Shown here piece after piece: positions 7,209-33,335 of a DNA stretch of 64,000 nucleotides; the first letter of the stretch is position 1, and every line of letters starts with the position of its first letter. The stretch covers positions 1,056,625-1,120,624 of the forward strand of contig CP070686.1 of assembly GCA_020353055.1 (NCBI GenBank). The letters run 5' to 3'. Below the pieces are notes generated by a model that searched no databases, was not told the DNA's origin, and worked only from the letters and a program-made list of their open reading frames with translations. The translations under genes were made by a program, and so were the position numbers. The stretch comes from a candidate division WOR-3 bacterium (lineage in GTDB: Bacteria > Hydrothermota > Tepidihabitantia > SM23-42).

Positions 7209-7236
7209 TTGACACGGTTAAGTTTCTGCATATAAT
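7209..7236 (+). promoter_or_regulatory. sigma70-like promoter (TTGACA-N16-TATAAT) upstream of the ferredoxin gene
   Basis: ttgaca at 7209-7214 and tataat at 7231-7236 with a 16-nt spacer. AAGGAG RBS at 7243-7248. Confidence 0.4.
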
Positions 7237-7253
7237 TGCGCCAAGGAGATAAC

Positions 7254-7547
7254 ATGGGCCATTGGAGAAAACCTTTGGATAGCGATAAGATCAAGGTTAC
7301 GCACGGTGATATCCATATCATCAAGGAACGCTGCAAAGGCTGCGGGTTCTGCGTCGAGTATTGTCCAAAGGATGTTCTGGAAATGTCTGAAGAATACAAC
7401 CTGAAAGGTTACCATCCTCCGGTTGCCACGAATGCCGATGCATGTCTCGAGTGCCACCTGTGTGAGATGCTATGTCCTGAGTTTGCAATCTACATAACGC
7501 TCAAAGACGAGCAGGAAGTAGGAAGTTTAACCGAAAATAAAAGATAA
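7254..7547 (+). CDS. 2x[4Fe-4S] ferredoxin (possible delta-type subunit / electron carrier for the downstream oxidoreductases)
   Basis: Two CxxCxxCxxxCP motifs (CKGCGFCVEYCP, CLECHLCEMLCP). ATG at 7254 preceded by AAGGAG. Confidence 0.75.
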   Translation: MGHWRKPLDSDKIKVTHGDIHIIKERCKGCGFCVEYCPKDVLEMSEEYNLKGYHPPVATNADACLECHLCEMLCPEFAIYITLKDEQEVGSLTENKR

Positions 7548-7693: not shown

Positions 7694-7721
7694 TTGACAA
7701 TCATTTGGTTGTTGCTATAAT
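7694..7721 (+). promoter_or_regulatory. sigma70-like promoter (TTGACA-N16-TATAAT) ~240 nt upstream of hdrA; probable start of the long redox operon
   Basis: ttgaca 7694-7699, tataat 7716-7721. Confidence 0.45.
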
Positions 7722-7958: not shown

Positions 7959-9908
7959 ATGAAGATCGGTGTATATGTCTGCCACTGCGGCGGGAACATA
8001 TCCGAAGTCGTCGACATCAAGCAATTAACATCATTTGCCGAGAAGCAGTCAGACGTCGCAATCGTTCGAGACAATGCACATATGTGTTCTGATGTCGGCC
8101 GAAATCTCGTGCTGGAAGACATCAAAAAACACAATCTTGATAGAATTGTGGTGGCTGCCTGTTCGCCTCAATTTCATGGAAAGACTTTCATGGATATCGT
8201 AAAGAAGGCCGGCCTTTCACCCTATTTGTTCGAGATGGCTAATATCCGCGAACAGTGTTCTTGGCCACACTTTGACGAGCCCGAACTGGCGACCAGGAAG
8301 GCGAAAGACCTGGTGAACGTCGGAATTGCCAAGGTCAAACTTGACGAATCGTTGGAACGAAAAAGCATGCCCATCGGGAAGAGAGTACTCGTGGTTGGCG
8401 CCGGTATTGCAGGCATCCAGGCAGCGCTGGATCTCGGTGATGCCGGTTTCGAGGTTTTTCTCGTAGAGAAGAAACCCACGATCGGCGGGAAAATGGCACA
8501 ACTATCAAGGACGTTTCCAACCGAAGACTGTGCAGCATGTATCCTCTCTCCAAAGATGGCTGATGTTCCGAGCAATCCCAATATTACTTTATTCACTAAT
8601 TCAGAAGTGGAAAAAGTCTCTGGTTTTATCGGCAATTTTGAAGTAACAATTAACAAAAAACCCAGATACGTGAATGACAATTGTGTCTCCTGCGGTATCT
8701 GTGAAGAGAAATGTCCGGTGAAATTACCCAATGAATTCGAACAGGGGTTAACAACCCGCCGGGCGATCTACGTTCCGTTCGAATTTGCGGTACCGTACAA
8801 ATACGTCATCGACGAACCCAACTGCATCTATTTTCAGAAAGGCAAGTGCGGTAACTGTAAGAAGGTCTGCCCGCACGATGCGGTAGACTTCGAACAGAAA
8901 CCCGAAAAAATTGAAATCAAGGTAGACACCATAATCGTCGCGTCTGGCTATGATATCTTTGATGCCAGTGAGAAAAAAGTGTACGGCTTCGGCACGAACG
9001 AAAACGTCATCACCTCCCTGGAAATGGAACGCATGATCGTCCACGAAGCCGAAGGCCGCCCGACGAGAAAGATAGGCAATAGAATAGCATTCATCCAGTG
9101 TGTTGGTTCCCGGGACGAGCAAATCGGAAATGAATACTGCTCGAGGATCTGCTGCATGTATGCAACGAAGCTCTCGCAGCTCCTGAAGAGAACCGACCCG
9201 AAAAGGGATGTCTATGTCTTCTATACAGATCTACGTGCTTACGGTAAGGGTTTTGAAGAATATTACAAAAGAGCAGCACGGACCGGTGTCAAGTTCATTC
9301 GAGGAAGGGTCGCCGAATTGATCGAAGATCCCGAGACCAAAAAAGTGACCGTCAAAGTCGAAGATACCCTGGCACGCCAGATAATAGAATCAGAATTCGA
9401 CCTCGTCGTACTATCGGTGGGCATGCAGCCTGGCGAAGGAACTGGGAAAATCGCCGAGGTTCTGAGGATGACGCGAAGCCCCGGTGGCTTTCTCCAGGAG
9501 GCGCACCCGAAATTCAAACCGGTCGACACCCTCAACGACGGCGTGTTCATATGTGGCTGTGCGCAGGGACCCAAAGATATCCCTGACACCGTAGCACAGG
9601 CGAGTGCTGCTGCGGCGAGGGCGATAAGGCTGATGAATAAAGGTGAATATGAGGTCGAACCAATCACCGCGGTTGTCGACGAGGACCTCTGCAGTGGATG
9701 TGCAACCTGTGTAAGTGTCTGCCCGTACGATGCGGTGAAGACGGAAGTCAAGGATGACAAAAGGGTCGCCAAAGTGAACGAATTTCTTTGTCAAGGCTGT
9801 GGTTCCTGCTCGGCGGCTTGTCCTTCTGGAGCCTCACAGCAGCATTGGTTCATGAGTAGTCAATTAAAGGCCATGGTTGGCGCAGCATTAGGAGAGGAGG
9901 AAGAATGA
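7959..9908 (+). CDS. hdrA: Heterodisulfide reductase subunit A (HdrA), Cys form
   Basis: N-terminal VCHCGGNIS Cys cluster, FAD fold VLVVGAGIAGIQAALDL, FPTEDCAACILSPKM, several CxxCxxCxxxCP ferredoxin motifs. RBS AAGGAG. Confidence 0.85.
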   Translation: MKIGVYVCHCGGNISEVVDIKQLTSFAEKQSDVAIVRDNAHMCSDVGRNLVLEDIKKHNLDRIVVAACSPQFHGKTFMDIVKKAGLSPYLFEMANIREQCSWPHFDEPELATRKAKDLVNVGIAKVKLDESLERKSMPIGKRVLVVGAGIAGIQAALDLGDAGFEVFLVEKKPTIGGKMAQLSRTFPTEDCAACILSPKMADVPSNPNITLFTNSEVEKVSGFIGNFEVTINKKPRYVNDNCVSCGICEEKCPVKLPNEFEQGLTTRRAIYVPFEFAVPYKYVIDEPNCIYFQKGKCGNCKKVCPHDAVDFEQKPEKIEIKVDTIIVASGYDIFDASEKKVYGFGTNENVITSLEMERMIVHEAEGRPTRKIGNRIAFIQCVGSRDEQIGNEYCSRICCMYATKLSQLLKRTDPKRDVYVFYTDLRAYGKGFEEYYKRAARTGVKFIRGRVAELIEDPETKKVTVKVEDTLARQIIESEFDLVVLSVGMQPGEGTGKIAEVLRMTRSPGGFLQEAHPKFKPVDTLNDGVFICGCAQGPKDIPDTVAQASAAAARAIRLMNKGEYEVEPITAVVDEDLCSGCATCVSVCPYDAVKTEVKDDKRVAKVNEFLCQGCGSCSAACPSGASQQHWFMSSQLKAMVGAALGEEEE

Positions 9909-10342
9909 AAAGCAACCCCGACCCAAAGATAATCGCATTTTGCTGTAACTGGTGTTCCTATGCTGGAGCCGACGCTGCCGGAACCTCGAGGCTCCAAATG
10001 AAACCGCATTTCAGAATTGTTCGAGCCATGTGTTCAAGCCGGATCGACCCGGAATTGATCCTCGATGCGTTGAAGAAAGGTGCCTGGGGTGTATTAGTGG
10101 CCGGTTGTCATCCGGGCGACTGTCATTATGTAACCGGTAATTATCGTACCCACAAAAGAATCGCATTGCTCAAGGACCTGCTAAAAGAACTGGGCATAGC
10201 ACCACAAAGGGTAAGGCTGGAGTGGATCTCGGCAAACGAAGGTGGCAAGTTCCAAAAAGTCGTCAACGAATTCATCGATGAAATGTCCGTACTGGGGCCA
10301 CTTGAATTGAAAGGACAGCCAGCCGCCAAGGAGGCATCATGA
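9905..10342 (+). CDS. mvhD: Methyl-viologen-reducing hydrogenase delta subunit homolog (MvhD)
   Basis: FCCNWCSYAGAD ... GCHPGDCHY signature of the MvhD family. Translationally coupled to its neighbours by ATGA overlaps. Confidence 0.85.
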   Translation: MKSNPDPKIIAFCCNWCSYAGADAAGTSRLQMKPHFRIVRAMCSSRIDPELILDALKKGAWGVLVAGCHPGDCHYVTGNYRTHKRIALLKDLLKELGIAPQRVRLEWISANEGGKFQKVVNEFIDEMSVLGPLELKGQPAAKEAS

Positions 10343-10743
10343 TCAAGAAGATCGAGATCTCACCCGAGAACGAGAAGTTCCTGAAAAAAGTCAATGAGCT
10401 CAGTGGGCAGGTCATCACTCTCTGCGAACAATGTGGTACTTGTTCGGGTGGTTGCCCCCTTGTCACTGAGATGGACATAACTCCGTCACAGATGATGAGA
10501 ATCGTCCAATTGGGTCAAAAAGAGGTTCTGGATTACAAGGCAATCTGGGTATGTGCTTCATGTTTCACCTGTACGGTCAGGTGCCCGCGCCAAATCGATG
10601 TATCCAAAGTGGCGGAAGCGCTGCGACAGATCATTCTGAGACAAGCCGTAGACCACATCGACATCAAAGCGATCCCTAAAGAGGAAATAGCCTGCCTTCC
10701 ACAAATCGCACTGGTAAGTGCGTGCCGTAAATTCACAGGATAG
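10339..10743 (+). CDS. hdrC: Heterodisulfide reductase subunit C (HdrC), two [4Fe-4S] clusters
   Basis: CEQCGTCSGGCP and CASCFTCTVRCP motifs; about 134 aa. Confidence 0.8.
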   Translation: MIKKIEISPENEKFLKKVNELSGQVITLCEQCGTCSGGCPLVTEMDITPSQMMRIVQLGQKEVLDYKAIWVCASCFTCTVRCPRQIDVSKVAEALRQIILRQAVDHIDIKAIPKEEIACLPQIALVSACRKFTG

Positions 10744-10753
10744 GAGGAAGAAT

Positions 10754-11695
10754 ATGAATACGACCAAAGAAACGAAATCAAAATCGGCGGAAAATATGAA
10801 ATTCCCCTACTACCCCGGATGTACACTAAAAACAACTGCCAAGAATTTCGAAACCTCAGCTATCGCCACGGCACGTGCACTCGGTGTGGAATTACTCGAG
10901 ATCCCGCGGTGGAACTGCTGCGGTACGGTATTCTCGCTTGCTCAAGACGATCTGATCCATCATGTGGCTTCGGTTCGGAATTTCATCAGGGTCCAGGAGA
11001 TGAATGACTATGGGTTGGTCAAGAACGAGAATCGTCTGGTGACTCTGTGTTCAATGTGCTTCAATACTCTGAAGAGCACAAATCGCCGCATGAAGGATAA
11101 TGCGGAAGATCTAAAAAAGATCAACGATCTCATGTATCGAGAGGAAGATTACAAGGGTAGTGTTGAAGTACTGCATTTCCTCGAACTCCTAAAATCGCTG
11201 GGCTACGACAAGATTCGGGATAAGGTAACCAAACCTCTGAAGGACCTGAAAATCGCGCCCTATTACGGCTGCATGATCTTGCGGCCCAAGGAGATAGCGA
11301 TAGACGACCCGGAAGATCCGACAATCCAAAAAGACCTTCTTGAAGCTCTCGGCGTGTCTGTCATTGATACACCGTATAAGAAGGTGTGTTGTGGAAGTTA
11401 TCAAACCGTCAAGGACAAGTATATAGTTGCTGAGTTGGCATATGACATACTCTCTCATGCGCGCAAAAAAGGCGCAGAGGCACTGACCACGGTCTGTCCC
11501 CTGTGCGCTTTCAATCTTGACCAACGCCAGCAGGCCGTAAAGGAAAAACATCCTGATTTCGAAGAAATGCCCGTCTTCTACATAACCCAATTAATGACCA
11601 TCGCCTTCGGTTTGAACAAAGAAGTATATGGTTTTGAACAGAATTACGTTGATCCAAAGCCGTTGCTCAAAAGCAAATCATTGATCGAAGATTAG
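10754..11695 (+). CDS. hdrB: Heterodisulfide reductase subunit B (HdrB), two CCG domains
   Basis: CCG-domain motifs (WNCCGTVF, KVCCGSY). AGGAGG RBS then ATG at 10754. Confidence 0.8.
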   Translation: MNTTKETKSKSAENMKFPYYPGCTLKTTAKNFETSAIATARALGVELLEIPRWNCCGTVFSLAQDDLIHHVASVRNFIRVQEMNDYGLVKNENRLVTLCSMCFNTLKSTNRRMKDNAEDLKKINDLMYREEDYKGSVEVLHFLELLKSLGYDKIRDKVTKPLKDLKIAPYYGCMILRPKEIAIDDPEDPTIQKDLLEALGVSVIDTPYKKVCCGSYQTVKDKYIVAELAYDILSHARKKGAEALTTVCPLCAFNLDQRQQAVKEKHPDFEEMPVFYITQLMTIAFGLNKEVYGFEQNYVDPKPLLKSKSLIED

Positions 11696-11706
11696 GAGAA
11701 CAAATA

Positions 11707-12465
11707 ATGGAAGATAATAAAAGCCCCATCATGGATAGAATTGCAGAGGCAAATAAGGCTGCGACGACAGGCATTGACGCGAAAGATATCAAGAACTGGA
11801 TCACGATTCACATCATGGGAAAAGCCTACAAGGTACCGGCCGACCTCACAATCCTGACGGCAATGGAGTATGCCGGCTACAAGTTTGTGAGAGGTGTTGG
11901 CTGCCGACAAGGCTTCTGCGGTGCCTGCGCTACTGTTTTCCGCAAGAAAGGAGATTACAAGCTGCAGACCGGCATGGCATGCCAGACCCGGGCCGAAGAC
12001 GGTATGTATCTTGTTCAAATACCTTTCACGCCTGCCGAAAAAGCAATTTATGACATAACGAAGGAACCTTACGAGGCCTCGATATTCATCAAATACTATC
12101 CGGAAGTAACAAGATGTGTATCATGCAATACCTGCACCAAAGCATGCCCGCAAGACCTGGAAGTCATGGATTACGTCCAAGCCGCAATACGCGGGGATTT
12201 CGACTCGCTGTCGGATGTTTCTTTTGACTGCATTCAGTGCGGCCTCTGTGCCATGCGGTGTCCTGCCGAGATTGTGCAATACCACGTCGCCCAACTTGGA
12301 AGAAGGATGTTCGGGCGTTACGGACAGGGAGTGCCGGACCACCTCAGGAAAAGGGTGAAAGAAATCACCGAGGGTAAATTCAACGAGGAAATGGATAAAA
12401 TTACCAGTTGCTCAACCGAGGAACTTCGAAAGATATACACCGAGCGCGAAAAAGAACCAGAATAA
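11707..12465 (+). CDS. Succinate dehydrogenase/fumarate reductase-type iron-sulfur subunit (SdhB/FrdB-like)
   Basis: Plant-type 2Fe-2S motif GCRQGFCGACA...C followed by CVSCNTCTKACP and CIQCGLCAMRCP. Confidence 0.7.
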   Translation: MEDNKSPIMDRIAEANKAATTGIDAKDIKNWITIHIMGKAYKVPADLTILTAMEYAGYKFVRGVGCRQGFCGACATVFRKKGDYKLQTGMACQTRAEDGMYLVQIPFTPAEKAIYDITKEPYEASIFIKYYPEVTRCVSCNTCTKACPQDLEVMDYVQAAIRGDFDSLSDVSFDCIQCGLCAMRCPAEIVQYHVAQLGRRMFGRYGQGVPDHLRKRVKEITEGKFNEEMDKITSCSTEELRKIYTEREKEPE

Positions 12466-12479
12466 GGAAGGAGCAAGAA

Positions 12480-14135
12480 ATGGCAGAATTAAAATATATT
12501 GAAGGCTACCCGGAAAATATCAGAAAAGAAATCGATAAGGTTGCCAAAACGCGCGATAAGAGAATTGATTACACTCCCCCTGCTATGACCATGAAAGAAC
12601 GCGACGAAGTCCTGCGAATTCACCCGGATTATGCCCCTGGAGGCAAGCGTGAAATTCAGGTCGGCCCTAACAAAGGTAACCTCGCGCCGAACGAAGTTGC
12701 CGATCTTCTTGAGGCATACCCTCTAATCGACCAGGATGAGGTGAATCTCTCCCAGGTTGATTACGACACTGATATTTTGATCATCGGCGGCGGCCTGGCT
12801 GGCACATCTGCAGCATTGTGGGCCAATGATAGTGGTATCGCTACCGAACGAATACTGTTGACGAACAAATTAAGACACGGTGATGCAAACTCGATAATGG
12901 CCGAAGGCGGCACGCAAGCGGCCGATCGTGAAGTCGATTCGATCACGAAACACTATATCGACACGATCGGTGGTGGACATTTCGAAAACAAACCCGATGT
13001 CGCCAGAGCATTGGTAGAAGATGCTCCGCTGATTATGAAATGGCTCTGCGAGTTGGGTGCAATCTTCGACCGTGAGGAAAACGGCGATCTTGCCGAAAAA
13101 CTCGCAGGCGGTATATCAGTGAAACGCATGCATTCGTGCCGTGACTACACGGGACTGGAAGAATTTAGAGTATTGAGGGATGAGTTCCGAACACGTGAAA
13201 TTCCTTATCTGGAACACTATCCGGCGATTGAGCTGCTAACCGACGGTGAACGTGTAACCGGCGCTGTCCTGTGGAATCTGGAAACCGGTGAGTACAAGAT
13301 AGTCAAAGCCAAGGCAACGATCATCGCCACCGGTGGTTATGGAAGATTACACATAAGAGGATTTCCCACAACAAATCACTACGGCGCAACTTTTGATGGC
13401 GTCGTTCTGTCTTATCGTGTGGGCGCCAAATTACGTGATATCGACGCAGTACAGTATCATCCAACCGGAGCTGCCTATCCAATCCAGATCGTAGGCTATC
13501 TGCTGACGGAAAAACTCCGAGGCAGCGGCGCGCAGCCGGTGAATGCAGACGGTGAAGCATTCGTTTACCCACTGGAGCCAAGAGATGTTGAAGCATCGGC
13601 GATTATCAGAGAATGCTATGTGCGTAACAAGGGTATCATCACGCCAACCGGGCTCCGCGGTGTCTGGCTCGATACACCCCTGATCGAAATCAAGAACGGC
13701 AAAGGATATATAGAGAAGGCTTTTCCTGGCATGATCAGAATGTACAAGCGGTACGACATCGACATACGCAAAGATCCTGTCTTGGTTTTCCCGACGCTTC
13801 ATTATCAGAACGGCGGTATCGAAACGGATCCCTCGGGCAGAACAAACGTCGACGGCCTGTGGGTCGCAGGTGAGGTATCAGGAGGTGTTCACGGTAAGAA
13901 CCGTTTGATGGGGAATTCCACTCTCGACTGTCTTGTATTCGGAAGACGCGCCGGCATGAGTACTGCAGAATACGTGAAATCGCATGGGGACGAGAGCAAG
14001 ATCAGTCTGGAACACGTGAAAAAATACGTCAAGAATCTTGAACAGGCTGGAGTGAAGCGTACCAGAAGAGCACCGATCATTCTACCTGATTATCGAGGCA
14101 AGGCAGCACTAGCTAGAATGATAGACGTATTCTGA
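12480..14135 (+). CDS. Sdh/Frd/L-aspartate-oxidase-family FAD flavoprotein (SdhA/FrdA-like). It has an N-terminal extension of about 110 aa.
   Basis: DILIIGGGLAGTSAA FAD fold, RHGDANSIMAEGG (His-Ser-x-AAQGG-like), YHPTG and LHYQNGG active-site-type motifs. GGAAGGAG RBS before ATG 12480. Confidence 0.7.
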   Translation: MAELKYIEGYPENIRKEIDKVAKTRDKRIDYTPPAMTMKERDEVLRIHPDYAPGGKREIQVGPNKGNLAPNEVADLLEAYPLIDQDEVNLSQVDYDTDILIIGGGLAGTSAALWANDSGIATERILLTNKLRHGDANSIMAEGGTQAADREVDSITKHYIDTIGGGHFENKPDVARALVEDAPLIMKWLCELGAIFDREENGDLAEKLAGGISVKRMHSCRDYTGLEEFRVLRDEFRTREIPYLEHYPAIELLTDGERVTGAVLWNLETGEYKIVKAKATIIATGGYGRLHIRGFPTTNHYGATFDGVVLSYRVGAKLRDIDAVQYHPTGAAYPIQIVGYLLTEKLRGSGAQPVNADGEAFVYPLEPRDVEASAIIRECYVRNKGIITPTGLRGVWLDTPLIEIKNGKGYIEKAFPGMIRMYKRYDIDIRKDPVLVFPTLHYQNGGIETDPSGRTNVDGLWVAGEVSGGVHGKNRLMGNSTLDCLVFGRRAGMSTAEYVKSHGDESKISLEHVKKYVKNLEQAGVKRTRRAPIILPDYRGKAALARMIDVF

Positions 14136-14224: not shown

Positions 14225-15430
14225 ATGAAAGCAGATAAGAGCGGCGTGTTAACCGGCTCTCATATTCTCAGCGGCAACGAGGCGTGCGCAGAAGGAGCCT
14301 TGGCAGCCGGCTGTCGTTTCTTGGGACTTTACCCTATTGTGCCTTCATTAGAGGTTTCGAAGAGATTCCTCCAGCGAGCGCCGGAAGTTGGCGCAACCTT
14401 TATCCAGATGGAAGATGAAGTGTCTGCCCTCGCTGCAGTTTTGGGCGCATCCTGGACCGGCAAAAAATCAATGACTGTAACATCAGGTCCGGGTTTCTCG
14501 CTCATGATGGAGCATCTCGGACTCGGCGTTATGTTGGAGACACCATGCGTGATCGTGGAAATCCAGATGGTCGGTCCGGGTCTTGGACTGCCGACCCGCC
14601 CCGCACAGGGAGATATCATGCAGTCCCGCTGGGGTTCTCATGGTGACTACGAGATAATCGCGTTCGCGCCTAGCTCGGCCCAGGAAATGTTTGACTTCAC
14701 TATCAAAGCATTCAATCTATCGGAACGTTATCGCGTTCCCGTCGCTCTCATGTCAGATGCATATGTCGCTCAACTAAAGGAAAAAGTCGCCATCCCTTCT
14801 GCCGACCAAATTAACATCGAACCGCGCCGATACTACGGTGGACCACGCGATAGTTACCTCCCATTCAAGAGGGATGAGGACTTTGTCCCGCCAATGGTGG
14901 ATATCGGGCAAGGCTACCGCTTTCACGTGACCGGTCTGACTCATGACGACCGGGGTTATCCAATCATGTTCGAAGAATGCCAGGAGTATAACGTTCACCC
15001 GCTGGTCAGAAAAATACGAGACTTCACTGACAAAATAATTGATATCGAGGAAAAGAATACCAATGATGCAGAAGTAGTTATTATTTCATACGGAGTGTCC
15101 TCGCGCGCTTCGCTCAAAGTGGTCGAACAGGCACGCAGCAAGGGACACAAGGTAGGCAGTCTAAAGCTGAACACGGTATGGCCATTCCCCGAAAAGAGAG
15201 TGGCCGAACTCGCAAGTCAGGTAAAGGCGTTTGTGGTCCCCGAGATGAACTTCGGTCAAGTAGTTCAAGAAGTGGAACGGAGCGCATATGGAAAAGCAAA
15301 TATCTTCTTTCTCACTCATGGCGATAACGGAGTTGAATATGCCGGAGATATCCTTGCCGCAGTTGAGGAAGCCTCTCAAATGAAAGAAACAAAATGTGGT
15401 ATCACTGAGTGGAAGAAACGGAGTGCATAA
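14225..15430 (+). CDS. korA: 2-oxoacid:ferredoxin oxidoreductase alpha subunit (KorA/PorA-like), copy 1
   Basis: Typical alpha-subunit sequence (GxYPIxPS ..., GPGFSLM, QSRWGSHGDYE). Note YPIVPS instead of the canonical YPITPS. Confidence 0.8.
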   Translation: MKADKSGVLTGSHILSGNEACAEGALAAGCRFLGLYPIVPSLEVSKRFLQRAPEVGATFIQMEDEVSALAAVLGASWTGKKSMTVTSGPGFSLMMEHLGLGVMLETPCVIVEIQMVGPGLGLPTRPAQGDIMQSRWGSHGDYEIIAFAPSSAQEMFDFTIKAFNLSERYRVPVALMSDAYVAQLKEKVAIPSADQINIEPRRYYGGPRDSYLPFKRDEDFVPPMVDIGQGYRFHVTGLTHDDRGYPIMFEECQEYNVHPLVRKIRDFTDKIIDIEEKNTNDAEVVIISYGVSSRASLKVVEQARSKGHKVGSLKLNTVWPFPEKRVAELASQVKAFVVPEMNFGQVVQEVERSAYGKANIFFLTHGDNGVEYAGDILAAVEEASQMKETKCGITEWKKRSA

Positions 15431-16308
15431 TGGCAACCCAGAAAGTTAATACAAACAAAGACATACATCCCATGGAAAACCTGCTCCGCATGGACCGGAT
15501 GCCACACATCTGGTGCCCGACCTGCGGAATCGGACTCGCCGTCACCGCATTCACCGCGGCTCTCGAAAAGGCAAATATCGATCCCAATATGGTGAGCATT
15601 GTCTCGGGAATTGGCTGCACTGGTAGAGTGGCTGGCTATGTGAAGGTCGATTCCTTTCACACGACACATGGCCGACCGATCGCTTTTGCCACGGGTATCA
15701 AAGTCGCAAATCCAAAGATGAAAGTCGTTGTGTTCTCGGGCGATGGTGACTTGATCGCGATCGGCGGAAATCATTTCATACATGCGGCGCGCCGCAATAT
15801 CGATATGCTGGTCGTCTGTGTTAACAACTTCATCTATGCAATGACCGGCGGTCAGGTGGCACCGACCACACCCCTGGCTGCCTATGCTACGACTTCACCG
15901 TACGGCTGTGTCGAACCACCCTTCAACATTCCTTATCTGGCTGACTCATCTGGCGCAGTATATGTAGCAAGATACACGGCATTGCACATCCGAAGGTTGA
16001 CCAATGCTTTGACTGAAGCCTTGAACAAAAAAGGATTTTCCGTCGTTGAGGTAATCTCACCGTGCGGCATGTATTATTCGCGAATCAACCGACTCGGCGA
16101 TGGACTCGAGATGATGAAATTCTATCATGATAATGTGGAAATAAAACACGGTGAAGACACGAAGAACCTGGAAATTGGATTTCAAAGCAAGATTATCTGC
16201 GGCAAGTTCGTTGACCGTGAAAGACCTTCCTACATGGAACGATACAATCAATGGCTTTCTGAAGTAAGAGCTTCAGCTAAGAATCCCGAAGGGAAAAAGG
16301 GAGCATAA
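15430..16308 (+). CDS. korB: 2-oxoacid:ferredoxin oxidoreductase beta subunit (KorB, TPP-binding), copy 1; canonical
   Basis: WCPTCGIG and GIGCTG Cys ligands, GDGD...NN TPP-Mg motif, TGGQ. TAATG overlap with the upstream gene. Confidence 0.8.
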   Translation: MATQKVNTNKDIHPMENLLRMDRMPHIWCPTCGIGLAVTAFTAALEKANIDPNMVSIVSGIGCTGRVAGYVKVDSFHTTHGRPIAFATGIKVANPKMKVVVFSGDGDLIAIGGNHFIHAARRNIDMLVVCVNNFIYAMTGGQVAPTTPLAAYATTSPYGCVEPPFNIPYLADSSGAVYVARYTALHIRRLTNALTEALNKKGFSVVEVISPCGMYYSRINRLGDGLEMMKFYHDNVEIKHGEDTKNLEIGFQSKIICGKFVDRERPSYMERYNQWLSEVRASAKNPEGKKGA

Positions 16309-16309
16309 C

Positions 16310-17551
16310 GTGAAAGCTGATCAAAAGAGCGTGCTGACCGGTGTCTACTACATAGATGGAGATGTTGCTGCGGGCTATGGTGCTCTGGCCGCGGGCTGTA
16401 AATTCGTGGCCGGTTATCCGATCACCCCATCAACGGAAGCATTTGAAGCAGTCTGCCACCGCGGACCAAAAGTCGGAACTGTGTTTATTCAGATGGAAGA
16501 TGAACTGGGTTCAATTTCGGCCATACTTGGCGCTGTGTGGTCAGGAGTCAAGACAATGACCATAACCTCTGGTCCCGGGTATTCGCTGATGCAAGAAGCA
16601 ATTGGCTTCGGAGCGATGCTCGAGACACCTTTTGTCCTGCTCAACATTCAGCGCGGCGGTCCCTCCACCGGTGTGCCGACCAAGACTGGTCAGGCAGACA
16701 TGATGCAGTCCCGGTGGGGCTCACACGGAGACTATGAGGTCATCGCCATTGCACCAGATTCGCCGCAGGAGATGTTCGATTATACGATCAAAGCGTTCAA
16801 TCTCGCCGAGAAGTACCGCTGCCCGGTCATGATAATGTCCGATGAATGCGTTGGTCATATGACCGAAAAAGTCGTTATCCCGGACGCTGACAAAATTTAC
16901 GTTGAACCAAGAAGATTCTATACCGGTCCGGCCGCGGATTACAGACCATACAAACCTGATCCAGACCTGGTGCCCAAAATGGCAAAGGCTGGCGAAGGGC
17001 TGAATCTGTACATAACCGGAATCGTTCATGACGAAAACGGATATCCAGTCAGTGATGAAAAATACAAGAGCATTTATGTAAAAAGATTAGTTGATAAGAT
17101 ACGGCTCAATAAAAACGAAATTATTGAATTGAAGGAAGAAGGAACAGACGGTGCAGATGTGATCGTTGTCTCCTATGGAATATCGTCGCGCGTCGCGGTC
17201 AAGGGTGTAGAAATGGCCAGACAAAAAGGTGTAAAGGTCGGAACGCTGCGGCTCGTTACGGTATGGCCATTTCCTGATGACCGAATCAATGAACTCGCGA
17301 AGAAAACAAAGGCCTTTGTCGTTCCGGAGATTAACTATGGACAAGTGGTTTACGACGTTGCCCGCTGCGCACACGGTCACGCCAGTGTTGTACTCGTTCC
17401 CCATGGAGGTGCTGGTGTACACAACCCCGATGACGTCGCCGATGCAATCGAATTCGCCGTCAAACAAGAGAAACCACTGGAAGGCGTTCATGAATTCAAA
17501 ACGAGGCTTGAGAAATCAGTGTTTGAGGGAGGGTTCAAATTAAAGGAATGA
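16310..17551 (+). CDS. 2-oxoacid:ferredoxin oxidoreductase alpha subunit, copy 2 (GTG start)
   Basis: Paralog of copy 1 with the canonical YPITPSTE motif. Confidence 0.8.
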   Translation: MKADQKSVLTGVYYIDGDVAAGYGALAAGCKFVAGYPITPSTEAFEAVCHRGPKVGTVFIQMEDELGSISAILGAVWSGVKTMTITSGPGYSLMQEAIGFGAMLETPFVLLNIQRGGPSTGVPTKTGQADMMQSRWGSHGDYEVIAIAPDSPQEMFDYTIKAFNLAEKYRCPVMIMSDECVGHMTEKVVIPDADKIYVEPRRFYTGPAADYRPYKPDPDLVPKMAKAGEGLNLYITGIVHDENGYPVSDEKYKSIYVKRLVDKIRLNKNEIIELKEEGTDGADVIVVSYGISSRVAVKGVEMARQKGVKVGTLRLVTVWPFPDDRINELAKKTKAFVVPEINYGQVVYDVARCAHGHASVVLVPHGGAGVHNPDDVADAIEFAVKQEKPLEGVHEFKTRLEKSVFEGGFKLKE

Positions 17552-18324
17552 ATTCAATAATCGAGGCAATTCATAAGGGCATTGAAAAATCCGGTGTCGA
17601 TCGGAAGAAAATCAGTATTCCATCCGACATACCTTTTGAGCCAGAGACGGTGAAATCGCTGGGAGTCGATTATTTCCAGGTACCACGCGGACGCGCAATA
17701 GCCTTTGGCTCAGGATTGAAATTAGGCAACCCGGATCTCAAAGTTATTCCGGTCGTCGGTGATCTCATGACACTCGGTGGAAATCATTTTGTACACGGAA
17801 CGAGAAGAAACATGGAACTCCTCGTTCTTTGTATCAATAATTTCGTCTACCATAAGATCGCCGGCAAATCAGTTTCAGTGGTGACTGAAGCATTCTCACC
17901 TTACTCTACGTTCGAAGAACCTTTCAATTTTCCCCACCTTGGTAATTCCTGCGGAGCAGTTTATACGGCACGATGGACGGCTTTGCACACAAGCGAACTC
18001 GCCGAGTCTATCGCCGAGGCGCTGCACAAACGTGGCATGTCGATGATCGAAATTCTGGCGCCCGGCCCCAGTTACTACAGATACATTACTCATCTCGACT
18101 CGGAACTGATGCAGTTCTATTTTGATAACTCAATTTTGAAGAACAACGAAGACCCTCGGAACGTGGCAATAACGGCAGACAAAAAAATAGTCGTCGGAAA
18201 ATTCACCGACAAGGAACGGCCAACCTTCATTGACTCATACAATACTCAACACAAGAAAATACTCGGTGATGAATTCACTCCTCATGGACCGGTTTTTGAC
18301 AAAGCAGGAGGTGGAAATGGCTGA
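17548..18324 (+). CDS. Degenerate beta-subunit paralog of 2-oxoacid:ferredoxin oxidoreductase. It lacks the Fe-S Cys ligands and the GDG TPP motif.
   Basis: Aligns to KorB copy 1 (GRAIAFGSGLKLGNPDLKV..LGGNHFVH..RRNMELLVLCINNFVY), but has VVGD for GDGD, no CxxC, KIAGKS for TGGQ, and APGPSYY for SPCGMYY. Confidence 0.65.
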   Translation: MNSIIEAIHKGIEKSGVDRKKISIPSDIPFEPETVKSLGVDYFQVPRGRAIAFGSGLKLGNPDLKVIPVVGDLMTLGGNHFVHGTRRNMELLVLCINNFVYHKIAGKSVSVVTEAFSPYSTFEEPFNFPHLGNSCGAVYTARWTALHTSELAESIAEALHKRGMSMIEILAPGPSYYRYITHLDSELMQFYFDNSILKNNEDPRNVAITADKKIVVGKFTDKERPTFIDSYNTQHKKILGDEFTPHGPVFDKAGGGNG

Positions 18325-18883
18325 AATTAGATTCGCCGGTTATGGGGGTCAAGGGATCATAAGATCCGGGATAATCGCCGGCAAAGCAGCGTCGATCTTC
18401 GATAGCAAGTATGCAACCATGAGTCAATCATTCGGGCCGGAAGCGCGTGGCGGTGCATGCAGCTCGCAGCTCGTCATATCCGAGAGCAAGGTCTTGTACC
18501 CGTACATCACAAATTCTGACGTCCTGATTGCCATGTCCCAGGCAGGGTATGATAAGTTTGAATCAGAAATGGGTGAAGAGGCAATGTTGTTGTACGATGA
18601 GGACCTCGTTAAACCCAAATCGTCACGCGGGAAAATCCTCGCCTACGCCATACCGGCAACACGGTTCGCTGAAGAATTGGGTATCAAGATCGTTGCGAAC
18701 GTTGTCATGCTTGGTTTTTTCACCGCCATTACCCATCTGGTCACCTATGAAAGCATGAAGAAGGCTCTGCCTGGCCTTGTCCCGGAGAAGGCATTGCCAC
18801 TGAACTTAAAAGCTTTCGAACGCGGTTATGAATATGGAAATGAGCTCTTAACCAAGAAACAATCAGATAAAGGAACGAAATAA
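18317..18883 (+). CDS. 2-oxoacid:ferredoxin oxidoreductase gamma subunit (KorC/PorG-like)
   Basis: MAEIRFAGYGGQGIIRSGIIAGKAA signature. AGGAGGTGG RBS before ATG 18317. Confidence 0.8.
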   Translation: MAEIRFAGYGGQGIIRSGIIAGKAASIFDSKYATMSQSFGPEARGGACSSQLVISESKVLYPYITNSDVLIAMSQAGYDKFESEMGEEAMLLYDEDLVKPKSSRGKILAYAIPATRFAEELGIKIVANVVMLGFFTAITHLVTYESMKKALPGLVPEKALPLNLKAFERGYEYGNELLTKKQSDKGTK

Positions 18884-18886
18884 ACT

Positions 18887-21800
18887 ATGCCAAAAGGAGC
18901 ACTCGTCATTGGTGGAGGTGTGGCTGGGGTTCAGTCCGCATTAGATTTGGCGAACGCTGGTTTCAAGGTTTTCCTTGTCGAGCGTGGCCCATGTTTGGGC
19001 GGTCGAACATCCCAGATTCACAAAATCTTCACCTCGATGGACTGTACGGGCTGAATCCTCGGCCCTAAACTAATGGATGTCGGTCGACATCCGAATATTG
19101 AGATTTTTGCCAACAGCGAAGTTGTTGGCGTCGAGGGTGAAGCACCGGATTTCAAAGTGAAGGTCAGGCGCAAATCCACATTTGTCGATTGGGACAAATG
19201 TACTGGCTGCGGGGAGTGTCCGACTGTCTGTCCGGTCCACATCAAAGATGAGTTTCAATTAGACCTTTCAAAACGAGAGGCAATTTATCGTCGGTATCCC
19301 CAAGCAGTGCCTAATAAATTTCTCATCGACAAAAGGGGCTCGCCGCCGTGTCGATACTCCTGTCCTGCAGGAGTCAATGCTCAGGGATATATCGCGCTCA
19401 TTTCACAGGGCAAATATAAAGAAGCTTTGGAACTTGAACGGAGAGACAACCCGTTCCCGGCGGTCTGCGGACGTGTCTGCACTCACCCTTGTGAATCAGA
19501 CTGCAAGCGAAAAGACGTGGACGAACCGCTGGCCATTGCCCAGCTCAAACGTTTCATTTCGGACAGTGAGCAGGAACTCTCAGCACCGAGCCCTGAATTG
19601 AACAAGGAGAAGGTTGCCGTCGTGGGCGCCGGCCCTGCAGGCCTTTCTGCCGCATATTTCCTTGCCAAGAGAGGATACTGCCCGACCGTCTTTGAAGCCA
19701 CTGACCATCCAGGCGGGCTGCTGTACTGGGCAATACCGAGATTCAGATTGCCGGAGATCGCGCTGCAGCGCGATCTGGATTACATAAAGAGTTGGGGTGT
19801 TGAGATCAAGACGGGTACTGCATTAGGCAAAGATCTTAGTATCAAAGACCTTCAACAGGATTACAAGGCGATCTTCCTCGGACTTGGCGCGGCCAAAGAA
19901 AAAACAATGGGCATAGAAGGCGAAGATCTGCAGGGCGTCTCTCTGTGTGTTGAATTTCTAAATAAGGCGGTCCACGATCCTGAGACGCCGGTAGGCAAAA
20001 GGGTCGCCGTGGTCGGCGGCGGTAATTCTGCAATAGATGCGGTGCGTACCGTGTTGCGTCTTGGCGCCGAAGAAGCATTCGTCGTATATCGCCGCTCACG
20101 CCAGGAGATGCCCGCAAACGAAGAAGAGATCGTCGAGGCGGAGAAAGAGGGAATCAAGATCCATTACCTGACCAATCCAACAAAGATATTTGGAGAAGAT
20201 GGCAAAATCAAGGGCATGGAATGCATCAAGATGAAACTGGGCGAACCTGATTCTTCAGGCCGAAGGAAACCAATACCCATCGAAGGTTCTGAATTCACCA
20301 TTAATCTGGATATGGTGATAATGGCGATCGGTCAGGCAGCCGATGTTTCATTCCTCACCAAAGAAGAAAAATTCGAGTTAACGCGCTGGGGAACCTTTGC
20401 CGTGGATCCAGACACCCTGCAAACGAACATCCCTGGTATCTTTGCCGGTGGTGATGCGGTGACCGGACCAGCCACAGTTATCGAGGCGATTGCTGCGGGG
20501 AAAGAAGCCGCAGAATCGATCGACCGCTTCATCAGAGGTGTCGATCTGAAAGCAGACAGAAAAAAGAAAGAAGATCGCGTCAAAGATGAAGATATCGAAA
20601 TCCCGGAAGAATTACAAACTGAGAAGAGAACGACGATGCCATTGCTGGATCTGGAAAAAGCGAAGAAGAGTTTCGAAGAAGTCGCCCAAGGATTCTCCGA
20701 AGAACAGGCTAAAAAAGAATCAGATCGATGCCTGAGCTGTGCAGGCTGCTCAGAATGTCTCGAATGCGTGAAGGTATGCGAACCAAATGCCATCGTGCAC
20801 GACATGGTGGACGAATTTGTGGACCTGGACGTGGGCTCGATCATCGTGACCACCGGTGTCGACTATCTCGATCCTAAAGAGGCAAGTGAATACGGATACA
20901 AACGCTTCAAGAATATCTATACATCTTTTGAAATTGAACGGATCATGAGCGAAGACGGCCCGAGTGCCGGCGAACTTCCCCTTGGCAAACAATTAAAGGA
21001 GCCGTTACGTTTCGCATTCATCCAATGCGTTGGATCGCGTAATATGCGCCATGACATCAACTATTGCAGCCGCATTTGTTGTATGAACACGATAAAAGAC
21101 AGTCTGGTCCTTAAAGAACACTACCCTGACGCAAATATTGTCGTATTCTATATTGACATTAGAGCCTTTGGAAAGGGATTTGAAGAATTTTATAATCGGT
21201 CCCTCGAAAAGGGTGTGAAATATATCAAGGGTAAACCATCAAAGGTGATTGAGGATGGCTCGGGAAATTTGGTTATTCATTATGAAAACGAACAGGGACA
21301 CTCAGGCCAAATGATATTCGATGCCGTATGTCTCTCTTCAGCGCTGATTCCGTCAAGGGGCTGCAGAGAATTGGCCGGCGTGCTCGGCGTCGATATCGAC
21401 GATGATGGTTTTTACAAAAACATGGAACCGGCAACCGCACCGCTTGAGTCAACGAAAAAAGGCGTTCTGGTATGCGGTTGCGCAACAGGTCCTAAGGACA
21501 TTACCGATTCGATCGCCGAGGCGAGCGGTGCCGCGGTTAAGGCAGCATGTTTCTTGGAGGGCCATGAACTGCCGGTCGAGAAAAAGGAAATCGAACAAGT
21601 CGATGTGTCCGGTCCACCGAGAGTCGGTGTCTTTGTCTGCCATTGCGGCCCGAATATTTCAAAGGTTGTCGATGTCAAAGGCGTAGTTGAATACGCGAAG
21701 ACTTTACCGGATGTGGTATTCGCCGAGGATTATACGTTCGCCTGTTCTGAAACAGCCCAACACCAGATTCAAGAGAGGATAGCCGAACACAAACTGAACA

Positions 21801-23284
21801 GGGTTGTTGTCGCCGCCTGTACACCCAAGACGCATGAAATGAGCTTTCAAGATTCATTAACTGCCGTCGGTCTCAATCCGTACCTCTTCGATATCGCGAA
21901 CATCAGGAATCAATGCTCCTGGGTACATCAGAAAGAACCAGAAAAGGCAACCGAGAAAGCAAAAGAATTAGTCAGGATGTCGGTGGCGCGTGTTCGAAAA
22001 CTAGGTCCGCTCTTCATGAAAGAACTGTCGGTTAACCGCGATGTCGCTGTCATCGGCGCTGGTATCACCGGCCTGCGATGCGGTATTGATTTGCTCCAGC
22101 GGGGCTTTAAGGTCAAAATAATTGAGAAAAAAGAATTATCAGGCGGTCTGGTACGGCATCTCTCCAGCATCTATCCCAGCTTCCGGAAAGGAAGGAATAT
22201 TGTCGAGAAACTTCTCGATGAATTCACCAGTGCGGGCGGCGAACTTCTGACTTCAACAGAACTTGTGGATGTCACCGGTTATGTAGGTAACTTCCAGGTT
22301 AAGGTGAAGAGTGCAAAAGGAGAGACCGAATTCACGGTGGGCGCTATCGTTCTCGCCACGGGGTCAGAACTCTATGATCCAGGCGAGCGCTTTGGCTACG
22401 GTAAATATCCCAATGTCATCACCAACATGGAATTAGAACAAAAACTAATATCGGGTGAAATCGACGATATAAAATCCGTTGCCTTTTTCCAGTGCGTCGG
22501 CTCGAGGGGTGACGACGGTAATCCCGGATGTTCTCGCTATTGCTGTCAGGCAGCAATAAAAGAAGCCATTCATTTAAGAGAAAAAGGGATCGATGTTGCT
22601 ATTCTCAACCGCGGTGTCAGGGTTTATTCAAAAGGCGCCGAGCGGATGTACCGCAAGGCAAGGGAACTCGGCGTCCTATTCTTACCGTACGATGGAGAAC
22701 CAGAGATCACCGGAGCCGATAAGGCGGAAGCGGTCACGATCCCGTCACCAGATATCGATGCCGACATTACCATCCCGGTTAACCTCGTTGTGCTTTCGGT
22801 AGGCATGGTCCCGGCTGCCGATTCAGGACATCTTTCAGAGTTATTTAAGGTCCCGCGTGGGCCTGATAAGTTCTTCCTGGAACGTCACTCGAAATTCGGT
22901 CCGGTAGAAACAACGGTTGAGGGCGTGTTCTTATGCGGTTGTTGTCAGTTCCCGCAGGATATCGGAGATTCGATATCCCAGGCTTCGGCTGTGGCATCGA
23001 AGGTTGCCGCGCTGCTTAGCCGTGACAAGATCACGCTGGCACCCATAACATCTACGGTCATCGAAGAATACTGCCGTGGCTGTGGCAGGTGCGCTGAAGT
23101 ATGCGAATTCCGCGCGATAGAATTGGTTGAGAAGGAAAACGGCGTTTTCGTTGCGCAAGTTAACGAAGCGCTGTGCAAAGGTTGCGGGACGTGCGTCGCG
23201 GCATGCCCAACCGGTGCCATCGACCTCAAACATTTCAGAAGTGAACAGATCGAGGCCCAATTGGAGGCGCTGTTTGAAGGATAA
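18887..23284 (+). CDS. HdrL-like giant heterodisulfide-reductase-A fusion (HdrA half with a GltD/NfnB-like NAD(P)H domain insert, plus a second complete HdrA). It contains an in-frame UGA at 19052-19054 read as selenocysteine. The ORF track splits it into 18887-19054 and 19073-23284.
   Basis: ATG 18887 is 3 nt after the korC stop. N-term [21 protein letters not shown]...[23 protein letters not shown] is colinear with HdrA FPTEDCAACILSPKM (the TGA sits at the second Cys). Both pieces are in the same frame. GltD-like CxxC clusters and [32 protein letters not shown](P)H folds; second [11 protein letters not shown] HdrA module. Confidence 0.75.
19075..19092 (+). promoter_or_regulatory. Putative bacterial SECIS hairpin (GGATGTCGGTCGACATCC) 21 nt downstream of the UGA
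   Basis: Perfect inverted repeat. Identical sequence at the same distance from the second UGA (27093-27110). Absent from the Cys-form hdrA. Confidence 0.5.
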
Positions 23285-23346: not shown

Positions 23347-23853
23347 ATGAAACAATCGGTTAAGAAAATAAAAGAACGATCCGATCACTCAACGGTTCAA
23401 CGATCCAAGGAAACCTTCGAGCCTAAGATCGTTGCCTTCTGCTGCAACTGGTGCTCATACCCGGCAGCAGACGGTGCGGGCGTCTCCAGGCTGCAATACC
23501 CCACGAATATCAAGATCGTCAGGGTAATGTGCGGCGGCCGCGTGACGCCATCCTTCGTCCTGAAGGCTTTCGAGTTGGGTGCAGACGGCGTTCTGGTTGC
23601 CACCTGCCATTTCGAGGACTGCCACTACATGTTTGGAGCGCGGAAGGCTGCGGATGTGCACAAGGTAACTGAGAAACTCACCGAGATGCTCGGCATCGAG
23701 AAAGAACGTCTCAAACTCGACTGGATCTCATCGGCCGAAGCGTCGAAATTTGCCAGGGTTGCCCGGGAATTCACCGAAACGATTAGAAAACTCGGACCGT
23801 CTACTATAAAGAAGAAGTTGGACGCCCTCAACGAAAGCATTGAAGATGAATAG
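23347..23853 (+). CDS. mvhD: MvhD homolog, second copy
   Basis: FCCNWCSYPAADGAG ... TCHFEDCHY. Confidence 0.85.
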   Translation: MKQSVKKIKERSDHSTVQRSKETFEPKIVAFCCNWCSYPAADGAGVSRLQYPTNIKIVRVMCGGRVTPSFVLKAFELGADGVLVATCHFEDCHYMFGARKAADVHKVTEKLTEMLGIEKERLKLDWISSAEASKFARVAREFTETIRKLGPSTIKKKLDALNESIEDE

Positions 23854-25494: not shown

Positions 25495-25497
25495 ATT

Positions 25498-26382: not shown

Positions 26383-26475
26383 AACACTGTTTTGAAAATT
26401 CGAATTTTGGATTTGGATATTGTTTAGTATTTCGATATTCGATATTAGAATTTGAACAAAAAGGGGGTGATCAAG

Positions 26476-30225: not shown

Positions 30226-30254
30226 GAGGCCGCCCAAGAGGCGGCCTCTTTTCT
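30226..30254. terminator. Bidirectional rho-independent terminator (GAGGCCGCC-loop-GGCGGCCTC, T/A tracts on both sides)
   Basis: 9-bp GC-rich perfect stem between convergent genes. Confidence 0.6.
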
Positions 30255-33159: not shown

Positions 33160-33335
33160 AAATCCTCCTGTTTCTTGTATTTGTTTGTGGTCAAACAATC
33201 TGAAATTGTCCAAAAGAAGGGCCGCAAAATCTCCCCAGTATTCTATTATATACATTTCTCATGTAAAGTCAACACAGTTGACAACTTCTGGCCTGGTCTT
33301 ATACTGTTCCTTCGATAAGAAAGGGAGGAATCATC

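Follow-up and report, generated by a model that had tools for sequence, protein, structure and literature searches.

A probable soluble fumarate reductase encoded with heterodisulfide reductase genes in a candidate division WOR-3 bacterium

The stretch of DNA considered here (the window) is 64,000 nucleotides (nt) from a candidate division WOR-3 bacterium (GenBank assembly GCA_020353055.1, contig CP070686.1). Directly behind a set of heterodisulfide reductase (Hdr) genes it carries a gene for an iron-sulfur (FeS) protein, followed by a gene for a flavoprotein (Table 1). We believe this pair is probably a soluble fumarate reductase and forms the high-potential acceptor arm of an electron-bifurcating HdrA-MvhD-HdrC-HdrB complex in the cytoplasm. 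We settle on fumarate and succinate as the substrate pair and on Hdr as the redox partner because the dicarboxylate site, the metabolic neighbors and the Hdr linkage agree. An earlier note on this DNA had read the pair as an Hdr-driven soluble fumarate (or other enoate) reductase. That reading draws support from the FrdA residues, the tree, the Hdr genes at 67 of 80 related loci, the metabolic neighbors and the lack of membrane anchors. The idea of an Hdr-linked bifurcating fumarate reductase is already published as a genomic hypothesis. The window holds, judged by its genes, a new member of this proposed enzyme class from a new phylum, in a minimal arrangement with neither Flx nor Mvh.

The scheme we favor runs as follows. 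A mid-potential donor would pass electron pairs to the flavin of HdrA, the subunit that carries the bifurcating flavin in characterized Hdr complexes. The donor in the relatives would be H2 by way of MvhAG or NADH by way of FlxABCD, and in the window it is possibly NAD(P)H by way of the HdrL encoded downstream. One electron would go uphill to ferredoxin. The other would follow the downhill branch, from HdrC and HdrB to the FeS subunit with its 2Fe-2S and 4Fe-4S clusters and then to the non-covalent flavin adenine dinucleotide (FAD) of the flavoprotein, and fumarate would be reduced to succinate at a conserved His/Thr/Glu/Arg site. The reduced ferredoxin could drive either Rnf or the co-encoded Kor-type 2-oxoacid:ferredoxin oxidoreductase (OFOR), which would make 2-oxoglutarate from succinyl-coenzyme A (CoA) and CO2. 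We liken fumarate in this role to crotonyl-CoA, the high-potential acceptor of the bifurcating Bcd-Etf system; the fumarate/succinate couple lies at +33 mV, against -320 mV for NAD(P)H (PMC5861303).

The flavoprotein and its iron-sulfur partner

Both genes are real and conserved, since their homologues number in the thousands (at least 8000 scored in the flavoprotein search and 4554 in the FeS protein search). We take ATG 12480 as the true start of the flavoprotein because a strong ribosome-binding site, AAGGAAGGAG, precedes it and because the resulting 551 residues equal the length of more than 100 database homologues; the open reading frame (ORF) as listed starts at TTG 12408. Pfam FAD_binding_2 (PF00890) matches almost end to end (model positions 1-413 of 414), with E = 4.4e-64 and a score of 217.6 bits, the cut-off being 20.4. 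The closest solved relatives are SdhA of Mycobacterium Sdh1 (E = 3e-61), Escherichia coli FrdA and E. coli NadB. The PDB alignment pairs H232, T244, E245, R287, H355 and R390 of E. coli FrdA with H327, T343, E344, R368, H441 and R475 of the flavoprotein. Across 13 subfamily members, with identities down to 37%, these six fumarate-binding or catalytic positions do not vary except for T/S at 343.

The flavoprotein also differs from the canonical enzymes. The histidine that binds FAD covalently in FrdA, H44, aligns with Asn137 (RHGDANSIMAEGG versus YPMRSHTVAAEGG), and N137 is invariant in the subfamily. The Pfam search gave no match to the C-terminal domain Succ_DH_flav_C (PF02910). Residue 95 aligns with residue 4 of FrdA, leaving an N-terminal extension of about 95 amino acids (aa) from the true start, in which H48 and P49 of an 'HPDY' motif are invariant across the subfamily. 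Every NCBIfam equivalog score falls under its cut-off: the top model is NF004900 (TfrA, 308.5 versus 718), followed by TIGR01812 (SdhA/FrdA, 275.5 versus 567.3, aligned over model positions 1-427 of 568 only) and TIGR00551 (NadB, 265 versus 452.75).

The FeS protein matches Pfam Fer2 and several 4Fe-4S dicluster families. Its plant-type 2Fe-2S motif is formed by C66/C71/C74/C92, and its two CxxCxxCxxxCP motifs by C137/C140/C143/C147-P148 and C175/C178/C181/C185-P186. All 12 of these cysteines are invariant in 24 homologues from different phyla. The final motif is complete, with four cysteines, and so indicates a second 4Fe-4S cluster rather than a 3Fe-4S cluster. The order of the domains is identical to that of SdhB/FrdB. 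The protein scores 22.8 with the SdhB/FrdB model TIGR00384 against a cut-off of 88, the family profile reaches Wolinella succinogenes FrdB at E = 3.5e-5 only, and the dicluster domain is most like those of HdrC, RnfC or polyferredoxins. We reject the idea that it is a close SdhB on that score and on the full 4Fe-4S pattern of the last motif. A canonical complex II is rejected as well, since the covalent-FAD histidine and the C-terminal domain are missing, no anchor is encoded nearby and the SdhB score is under its cut-off.

The earlier note had described both proteins in these terms, and most of its description stands. It had seen one 2Fe-2S motif and two complete CxxCxxCxxxCP motifs in the FeS subunit, and these cysteines are the ones located above. 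It had called the flavoprotein FrdA/SdhA/NadB-like on the basis of the motifs RHGDANSIMAEGG, YHPTG and HYQNGG, all of which are present. The unusual N-terminal extension exists and is conserved, but its size had been put at about 110 residues, which is too long.

To place the flavoprotein we searched 1.84 billion representative proteins, grouped into clusters at 50% identity. A few clusters align from within the N-terminal extension, with scores from 714 down to 296 bits. The generic SdhA, NadB and TfrA relatives reach 271 bits at most and align from residue 95 onward only. We then built a neighbor-joining tree (401 columns, 200 bootstraps) with outgroups labeled by NCBIfam, including seven bona fide NadB proteins. 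The subfamily and some relatives of about 400 aa form one clade in 200 of 200 bootstraps, separate from FrdA/SdhA. Four of these short relatives (P0148, P0157, P0162 and P0165) consist of the FAD-binding and capping region only and are a sister group of the subfamily. With the short relatives excluded, grouping with the TfrA/PRK07803 set, in which P0178 is a true TfrA, is found in 0 of 200 bootstraps. We reject a true TfrA by this result and by the score given above. Grouping with the L-aspartate oxidases, which the earlier note had named as an outcome that would refute its reading, is likewise absent (0 of 200 with NadB), and the tree and the gene context together reject an L-aspartate oxidase.

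In one database protein, P0123, the FeS protein is naturally fused to the flavoprotein, which bears out that the two act as a unit. By sequence, the two proteins are a subfamily of their own, distinct from TfrAB, and its hallmarks are the Asn in place of the covalent-FAD His, the extension of about 95 aa, the loss of the C-terminal domain and the second 4Fe-4S motif.

It could be argued from this separate clade that the flavoprotein acts on another substrate, either L-aspartate in the manner of NadB or a 2-enoate such as mesaconate or urocanate. No equivalog model reaches its cut-off, and NadB has the same catalytic residues. We give this argument hardly any credence: no bootstrap joins the flavoprotein to NadB, NadB has no FeS partner while the flavoprotein has one, and the neighboring genes are those for fumarase, malic enzyme, SucCD and C4-dicarboxylate transporters.

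Linkage to Hdr genes in Bacteria and Archaea

The genes of the window follow one another on the + strand in the order KorD-like ORF, hdrA, mvhD, hdrC, hdrB, FeS gene, flavoprotein gene, OFOR alpha-beta-alpha2-beta2-gamma and a second Hdr-type cluster (to 28935). From hdrA through the flavoprotein gene the intergenic gaps are 0-14 nt; the start of mvhD overlaps the stop of hdrA, and hdrB is separated from the FeS gene by 11 nt. Another 89 nt lead from the flavoprotein gene to the start of OFOR alpha. This order and these gaps agree with the earlier claim that the pair is embedded between hdrB and the OFOR genes. The likely start of hdrB is ATG 10754 behind TAGGAGGAAG, and its listed ORF begins at GTG 10718. 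Each of the 19 ORFs from 7.2 to 28.9 kb has at most one hydrophobic segment of 19 residues, so no multi-pass membrane protein is encoded there, and the absence of SdhC/D-like membrane subunits, also claimed before, holds across this part of the window.

The domain set of HdrA, MvhD, HdrC and HdrB is complete in the window (Pfam and NCBIfam) and the CCG cysteine motifs are intact. HdrA scores 859 bits with the NCBIfam HdrA2 model (equivalog cut-off 1100), and HdrB scores 165 bits with the HdrB model and 153 bits with the model of SdhE, the MFR anchor. All methanogen equivalog scores of the Hdr proteins are under cut-off, which is expected for proteins from a non-methanogen. There are perfect sigma-70-like sites at 7209-7236 and at 7694-7721, the latter with an extended -10. 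A terminator scan was at chance level (14 sites versus 13.0 expected), with weak candidates only within the cluster.

A scan of GTDB, with one genome per species and the subfamily alignment as query, gave more than 587 loci. The counts that follow are for the best 80 of these, which match over about the full length at 51-90% identity. Their ORFs were labeled by BLAST against reference proteins, and recurrent unlabeled neighbors were checked with Pfam. The bacterial hosts include WOR-3, Stahlbacteria, Aminicenantes, Fermentibacteria, Spirochaetota, Acetothermia, Thermotogae, Chloroflexota, Cloacimonadota, Fibrobacterota, Bacillota and Deltaproteobacteria. The archaeal hosts include Thermoplasmata, Theionarchaea, Culexarchaeia, Bathy-, Heimdall-, Thor- and Borrarchaeota and Desulfurococcales. 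The hypothesis is directly testable because cultured carriers exist; they include Clostridium estertheticum, Sporomusa rhizae, Marinisporobacter balticus and Acetoanaerobium pronyense.

In nearly all 80 loci the FeS gene immediately precedes that of the flavoprotein, and as a rule the two come last, behind hdrB or flxA. Of the 80 loci, 67 have Hdr-type genes, and most of the others are short contigs. HdrB/C was labeled in 57 loci, HdrA/HdrL in 53, MvhAG in 21 and HdrL in 12; there are FlxA-like genes in 22 loci and FlxB/C-like ones in 27. The metabolic neighbors are OFOR (40 loci), SucCD (16), malic enzyme (13) and the alpha (10) and beta (11) subunits of class I fumarase. Three electron-input modules replace one another by lineage, the MvhAG hydrogenase, FlxABCD and HdrL, and there are minimal forms like that of the window too; at L029, L033 and L070, HdrL stands in place of HdrA directly before the pair. 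An ORF with several transmembrane segments is nearby in only 3 of 86 loci, and none is the size of SdhC/D. The linkage to Hdr is kept, with exchangeable inputs, in a very large number of lineages of both Bacteria and Archaea.

Individual loci say more about the metabolic setting. Clostridium estertheticum has hdrB-hdrC-hdrA-flxD-flxC-flxB-flxA, the FeS gene, the flavoprotein gene, fumA, fumB and a DASS transporter gene, with a divergent LysR regulator gene. Cetobacterium has a divergent gene for the C4-dicarboxylate carrier DcuC upstream. Two Aminicenantes loci (L088/L089, 3316-12434) have four kor genes between hdrC-hdrB and hdrA-mvhD-FeS-flavoprotein, all on one strand, with glycine-cleavage genes including gcvH downstream on the opposite strand. 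The idea that loci of this type lack HdrBC is rejected, since at L088 hdrC-hdrB lies upstream of the kor genes. In four Deltaproteobacterial loci (L059, L065, L075 and L079, about 16.2-18 kb) the pair is followed, a few genes on, by another flavoprotein of the canonical FrdA-like kind, which shows that the two kinds of enzyme coexist. This second copy groups with E. coli FrdA and adjoins HdrD/HdrB-like CCG genes in 3 of the 4.

A different way to join the same proteins is the two-step route of methanogens. Here HdrABC would bifurcate onto a low-molecular or protein-bound disulfide, and HdrB, the FeS subunit and the flavoprotein would be a split thiol:fumarate reductase that re-oxidizes the dithiol. 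HdrC, HdrB and the FeS subunit together have the domain content of the fused TfrB, each matching a different part of the TfrB model, and the thiol route is given as an alternative in two papers on related clusters (PMC6315080; PMC11636981). A GcvH-like lipoyl carrier may, going by gene position, be a protein-bound dithiol partner for HdrB. Its gene is found in 4 loci overall and directly follows the flavoprotein gene in Culexarchaeum; the gene at 4041-4442 of L020 has this place. We still think the thiol route rather improbable. Apart from GcvH in those 4 of 80 loci there is no conserved neighbor for a thiol carrier or for cofactor biosynthesis, there is usually one HdrB per cluster, so that the same site would both reduce and oxidize the thiol, and the hosts are not known to make coenzyme M or coenzyme B (PMC9723716, for Culexarchaeia).

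Several observations weigh against the direct Hdr-to-fumarate reading that we prefer. HdrB has all ten CCG cysteines of the disulfide-reducing site, kept at 97-100% in 58 HdrB proteins from the surveyed loci, and this is as compatible with a thiol intermediate, on which the two-step route relies, as with a direct wire. The window has no MvhAG and no Flx homologue (tblastn), and its operon has no obvious electron-input module. The co-encoded OFOR scores below the cut-offs of the 2-oxoglutarate-specific models and receives no 2-oxoglutarate assignment. The predicted structures, made from close-homologue alignments only, have a mean predicted local distance difference test score (pLDDT) of 54 for the FeS protein and 49 for the flavoprotein, too poor for docking. 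Our search of the literature found no purification, assay or structure for an enzyme of this subfamily. The tie to the enzymes of Pseudoclostridium thermosuccinogenes and Endoriftia, discussed below, is one of gene layout and not of compared sequences. Finally, the pair can be encoded apart from Hdr: six close relatives (L001-L003, L009, L010 and L012) have it with no Hdr gene within about 9 kb.

The last point could be taken to mean that the pair is a stand-alone fumarate reductase, dependent on ferredoxin or on another donor and merely co-regulated with the Hdr and Kor genes, with no physical complex. The ferredoxin-like clusters of the FeS subunit could take electrons from soluble ferredoxin. 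We find this very unlikely. Co-regulation is a poor explanation for a place right after hdrB or flxA, with very short gaps, that is kept in both domains and with three input modules, and direct reduction of fumarate by ferredoxin would waste about 480 mV.

Earlier proposals and the direction of the reaction

The nearest proposal concerns P. thermosuccinogenes. A preprint by Koendjbiharie and van Kranenburg (2019), as cited in PMC7282089, put forward a Flx-Hdr-linked 'novel fumarate reductase' in this organism. In its 'succinate operon' fumarate hydratase is encoded together with a Flx-Hdr complex of seven genes, a fumarate reductase of two and a putative transporter (PMC7282089). When CO2 is limiting this operon goes up about 4-fold, and with added H2 succinate is no longer produced (PMC7282089). 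Compared by gene layout alone, the likeness to the window is a soluble two-gene fumarate reductase right after Hdr-type genes, adjacent and co-oriented, with a proposed coupling to ferredoxin. The C. estertheticum, Sporomusa rhizae and Cetobacterium relatives share the layout of Hdr-Flx genes followed by the pair, and C. estertheticum also shares the fumarase and transporter genes directly after it. The window differs in having no flxABCD module and no adjacent fumarase, and in having Kor genes and the downstream HdrL cluster. P. thermosuccinogenes is not among the top 120 matches of a search seeded with a clostridial member, where other cultured hosts are listed.

A second proposal comes from tubeworm symbionts, which share with Thioflavicoccus mobilis a tfrAB-flxABCD-hdrABC-korABCD cluster (PMC6315080; PMC11636981). 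For the symbionts it was suggested that one bifurcating complex feeds both the fumarate reductase and Kor (PMC6315080). Mitchell et al. report operon-like co-expression of most of the cluster, the tfrAB genes excepted (PMC11636981). The likeness to our loci is that one strand carries, intermingled, the genes for Hdr, for Kor and for an anchor-less fumarate reductase of two subunits, as in the kor insertion at L088. These clusters lie within a full reductive tricarboxylic acid (TCA) and ATP-citrate-lyase cluster and use Flx, whereas the window has neither. A 2026 survey repeats the proposal of a bifurcating complex (PMC13147460). SdhA/TfrA genes next to Hdr genes were also seen in Culexarchaeia (PMC9723716) and in metagenomic papers on Thiomargarita, and were not followed up there. 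A recent WOR-3 study makes no mention of a link between Hdr and fumarate reductase, and the exact phrase 'bifurcating fumarate reductase' was not found in our literature search.

Three other systems are also comparable. TfrAB of Methanothermobacter is soluble and anchor-less, has a FeS subunit with 2Fe-2S, two 4Fe-4S and HdrB-type CCG domains, and belongs to a reductive branch to 2-oxoglutarate. The window differs in that its CCG domains are on a separate HdrB and its flavoprotein has the N-terminal extension and no C-terminal domain. The FeS protein matches the TfrB model at positions 19-83 only (36.6 bits against a cut-off of 385), so the earlier statement that the TfrB-like parts are separate polypeptides here is borne out. 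In Hydrogenobacter thermophilus a five-subunit soluble NADH-dependent fumarate reductase was purified and assayed (Miura et al. 2008, as cited in PMC13147460). As described there, it is like the enzyme we propose in being soluble and multi-subunit, in belonging to a reductive TCA cycle and in using a pyridine nucleotide donor rather than quinol. Its genes are reportedly scattered in the genome. In the type E succinate:quinone oxidoreductase/MFR enzymes (SdhABE), the HdrB-like CCG protein SdhE partners an SdhAB-type pair, but they are membrane-associated and quinone-linked, with canonical SdhA and SdhB. The second flavoprotein of the Deltaproteobacterial loci is a canonical copy of this sort, present besides the subfamily member.

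We consider fumarate reduction the likely direction. The complex could instead run in reverse as a confurcating succinate dehydrogenase, in which electrons from succinate and from reduced ferredoxin are combined to reduce NAD(P)+ or protons; if so, amino-acid fermenters could oxidize succinate without quinones. The hosts are mostly peptide or amino-acid fermenters, the conserved active-site residues serve either direction, and the window has both a pair of genes like those of the gamma-aminobutyric acid (GABA) shunt, for an aminotransferase and an aldehyde dehydrogenase, and a histidine ammonia-lyase gene. The authors of the Culexarchaeia work drew the path from 2-oxoglutarate through succinyl-CoA, succinate, fumarate and malate to pyruvate (PMC9723716). 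The energetics argue the other way. Ferredoxin lies at about -450 mV and H+/H2 at about -414 mV. The mean of succinate (+33 mV) and ferredoxin is then about -210 mV, well above NAD+ (-320 mV) or H+/H2, and the reverse reaction would be workable only at extreme metabolite ratios. Flux also runs to succinate in P. thermosuccinogenes, the sole physiologically studied carrier, and the symbiont cluster belongs to a reductive TCA cycle. We therefore think a reverse complex improbable, slightly more so than the thiol route.

A stronger form of our proposal is that HdrABC-MvhD, the FeS-flavoprotein pair and the Kor-type enzyme form one cytoplasmic supercomplex in both bacteria and archaea, with the high-potential electron going to fumarate and the low-potential electron going to the reductive carboxylation of succinyl-CoA without free ferredoxin. 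We regard this as doubtful, though less so than any of the rival explanations. If it is true, two steps of the C4-to-C5 branch share one bifurcation event, and run in reverse the supercomplex could let syntrophs that have no quinone oxidize succinate.

If the simpler reading of an Hdr-linked fumarate reductase is true, flavin-based electron bifurcation has a further high-potential acceptor, fumarate, besides crotonyl-CoA, caffeyl-CoA and heterodisulfide. Anaerobes that have no quinones could then conserve energy by reducing fumarate, or obtain reduced ferredoxin for the synthesis of 2-oxoglutarate, without a membrane enzyme. The module is not limited to one clostridium and a few symbionts. It is in very many uncultured anaerobes, including Asgard archaea, Bathyarchaeota, Thermoplasmata, WOR-3, Aminicenantes, Cloacimonadota and Chloroflexota. 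The 'MvhADG-HdrABC' of such genomes is routinely annotated as reducing an unknown heterodisulfide, and in many of them fumarate may be the missing acceptor.

Other genes of the window

Table 1. Features of the Hdr-fumarate reductase region, in positions of the window
Feature	Position	Strand	Description
KorD-like ORF	7236..7547	+	small 2x[4Fe-4S] ferredoxin-like ORF; similar to OFOR delta; true start uncertain
hdrA	7959..9908	+	FAD and FeS subunit; NCBIfam HdrA2, Pfam Pyr_redox_2 and several Fer4
mvhD	9905..10342	+	MvhD/FlxD-type [2Fe-2S] adaptor; Pfam FlpD E = 3e-54
hdrC	10339..10743	+	2x[4Fe-4S] subunit; NCBIfam CoB_CoM_SS_C E = 6e-20, Pfam Fer4_17 and Fer4_8
hdrB	10754..11695	+	two CCG domains (Pfam CCG twice)
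FeS protein	11707..12465	+	252 aa; N-terminal [2Fe-2S] domain, HdrC-like 2x[4Fe-4S] domain, conserved helical tail
Flavoprotein	12480..14135	+	presumed catalytic subunit; 551 aa; FrdA/SdhA/NadB superfamily, non-covalent FAD
OFOR alpha and beta	14225-15430 (alpha), 15409-16308 (beta)	+	Kor-like; Pfam POR_N, PFOR_II, TPP_enzyme_C
Second OFOR alpha/beta pair	16310..18324	+	beta2 (17548-18324) degenerate
OFOR gamma	18317..18883	+	Pfam POR E = 8e-32; likely start ATG 18317 after AGGAGGTGGAA
HdrL-like giant protein	18887..23284	+	NfnB/GltD-like NAD(P)H module fused to HdrA-like modules; about 1465 aa; in-frame TGA 19052
HdrA-MvhD fusion	26452-28935		about 827 aa; in-frame TGA 27070

The KorD-like ORF ahead of hdrA may, from its similarity, be a ferredoxin partner or KorD. 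Its positions 7254-7511 have 65% identity to the OFOR delta subunit of L004 (tblastn), and L005 also has a KorD-like ferredoxin ORF upstream of hdrA.

The OFOR scores 502 bits with NCBIfam PRK08659, over the cut-off of 411. The beta2 subunit has lost the N-terminal CxxC segment and other cluster cysteines, and 'GD--' replaces the GDGD thiamine-diphosphate motif, so the second alpha/beta pair is probably non-catalytic. The doubled arrangement alpha-beta-alpha2-beta2-gamma is found in the relatives L004, L006 and L008 as well.

The HdrL-like protein matches Pfam Fer4_20 and Pyr_redox_2, with HdrA similarity and an upstream extension seen by tblastn. Speculatively, it is the best candidate for the NAD(P)H input of the upstream Hdr module, because it has a NfnB/GltD-type NAD(P)H domain and because HdrL replaces HdrA in relatives. 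Behind it, at 23347-26382, lie genes for MvhD, an HdrD-like fusion of HdrC-type and CCG domains (384 aa), HdrC and HdrB, and then the HdrA-MvhD fusion. This second redox cluster may supply the Hdr-fumarate reductase module or compete with it.

The in-frame TGA codons of the HdrL-like gene and the HdrA-MvhD fusion both sit at the second Cys of the HdrA1 motif 'DCAAC'. About 20 nt after each is the same hairpin, GGAUGUC-GGUC-GACAUCC, which resembles a bacterial selenocysteine insertion sequence (SECIS) element. These two genes probably encode selenocysteine-containing HdrL and HdrA proteins. ORF callers split or truncate both of them.

The GABA-shunt-like pair consists of a class III aminotransferase gene beside an aldehyde dehydrogenase gene at 30254-33255 on the - strand, and would yield succinate. 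It keeps its place next to the Hdr-fumarate reductase cluster in L005 (15416-18384).

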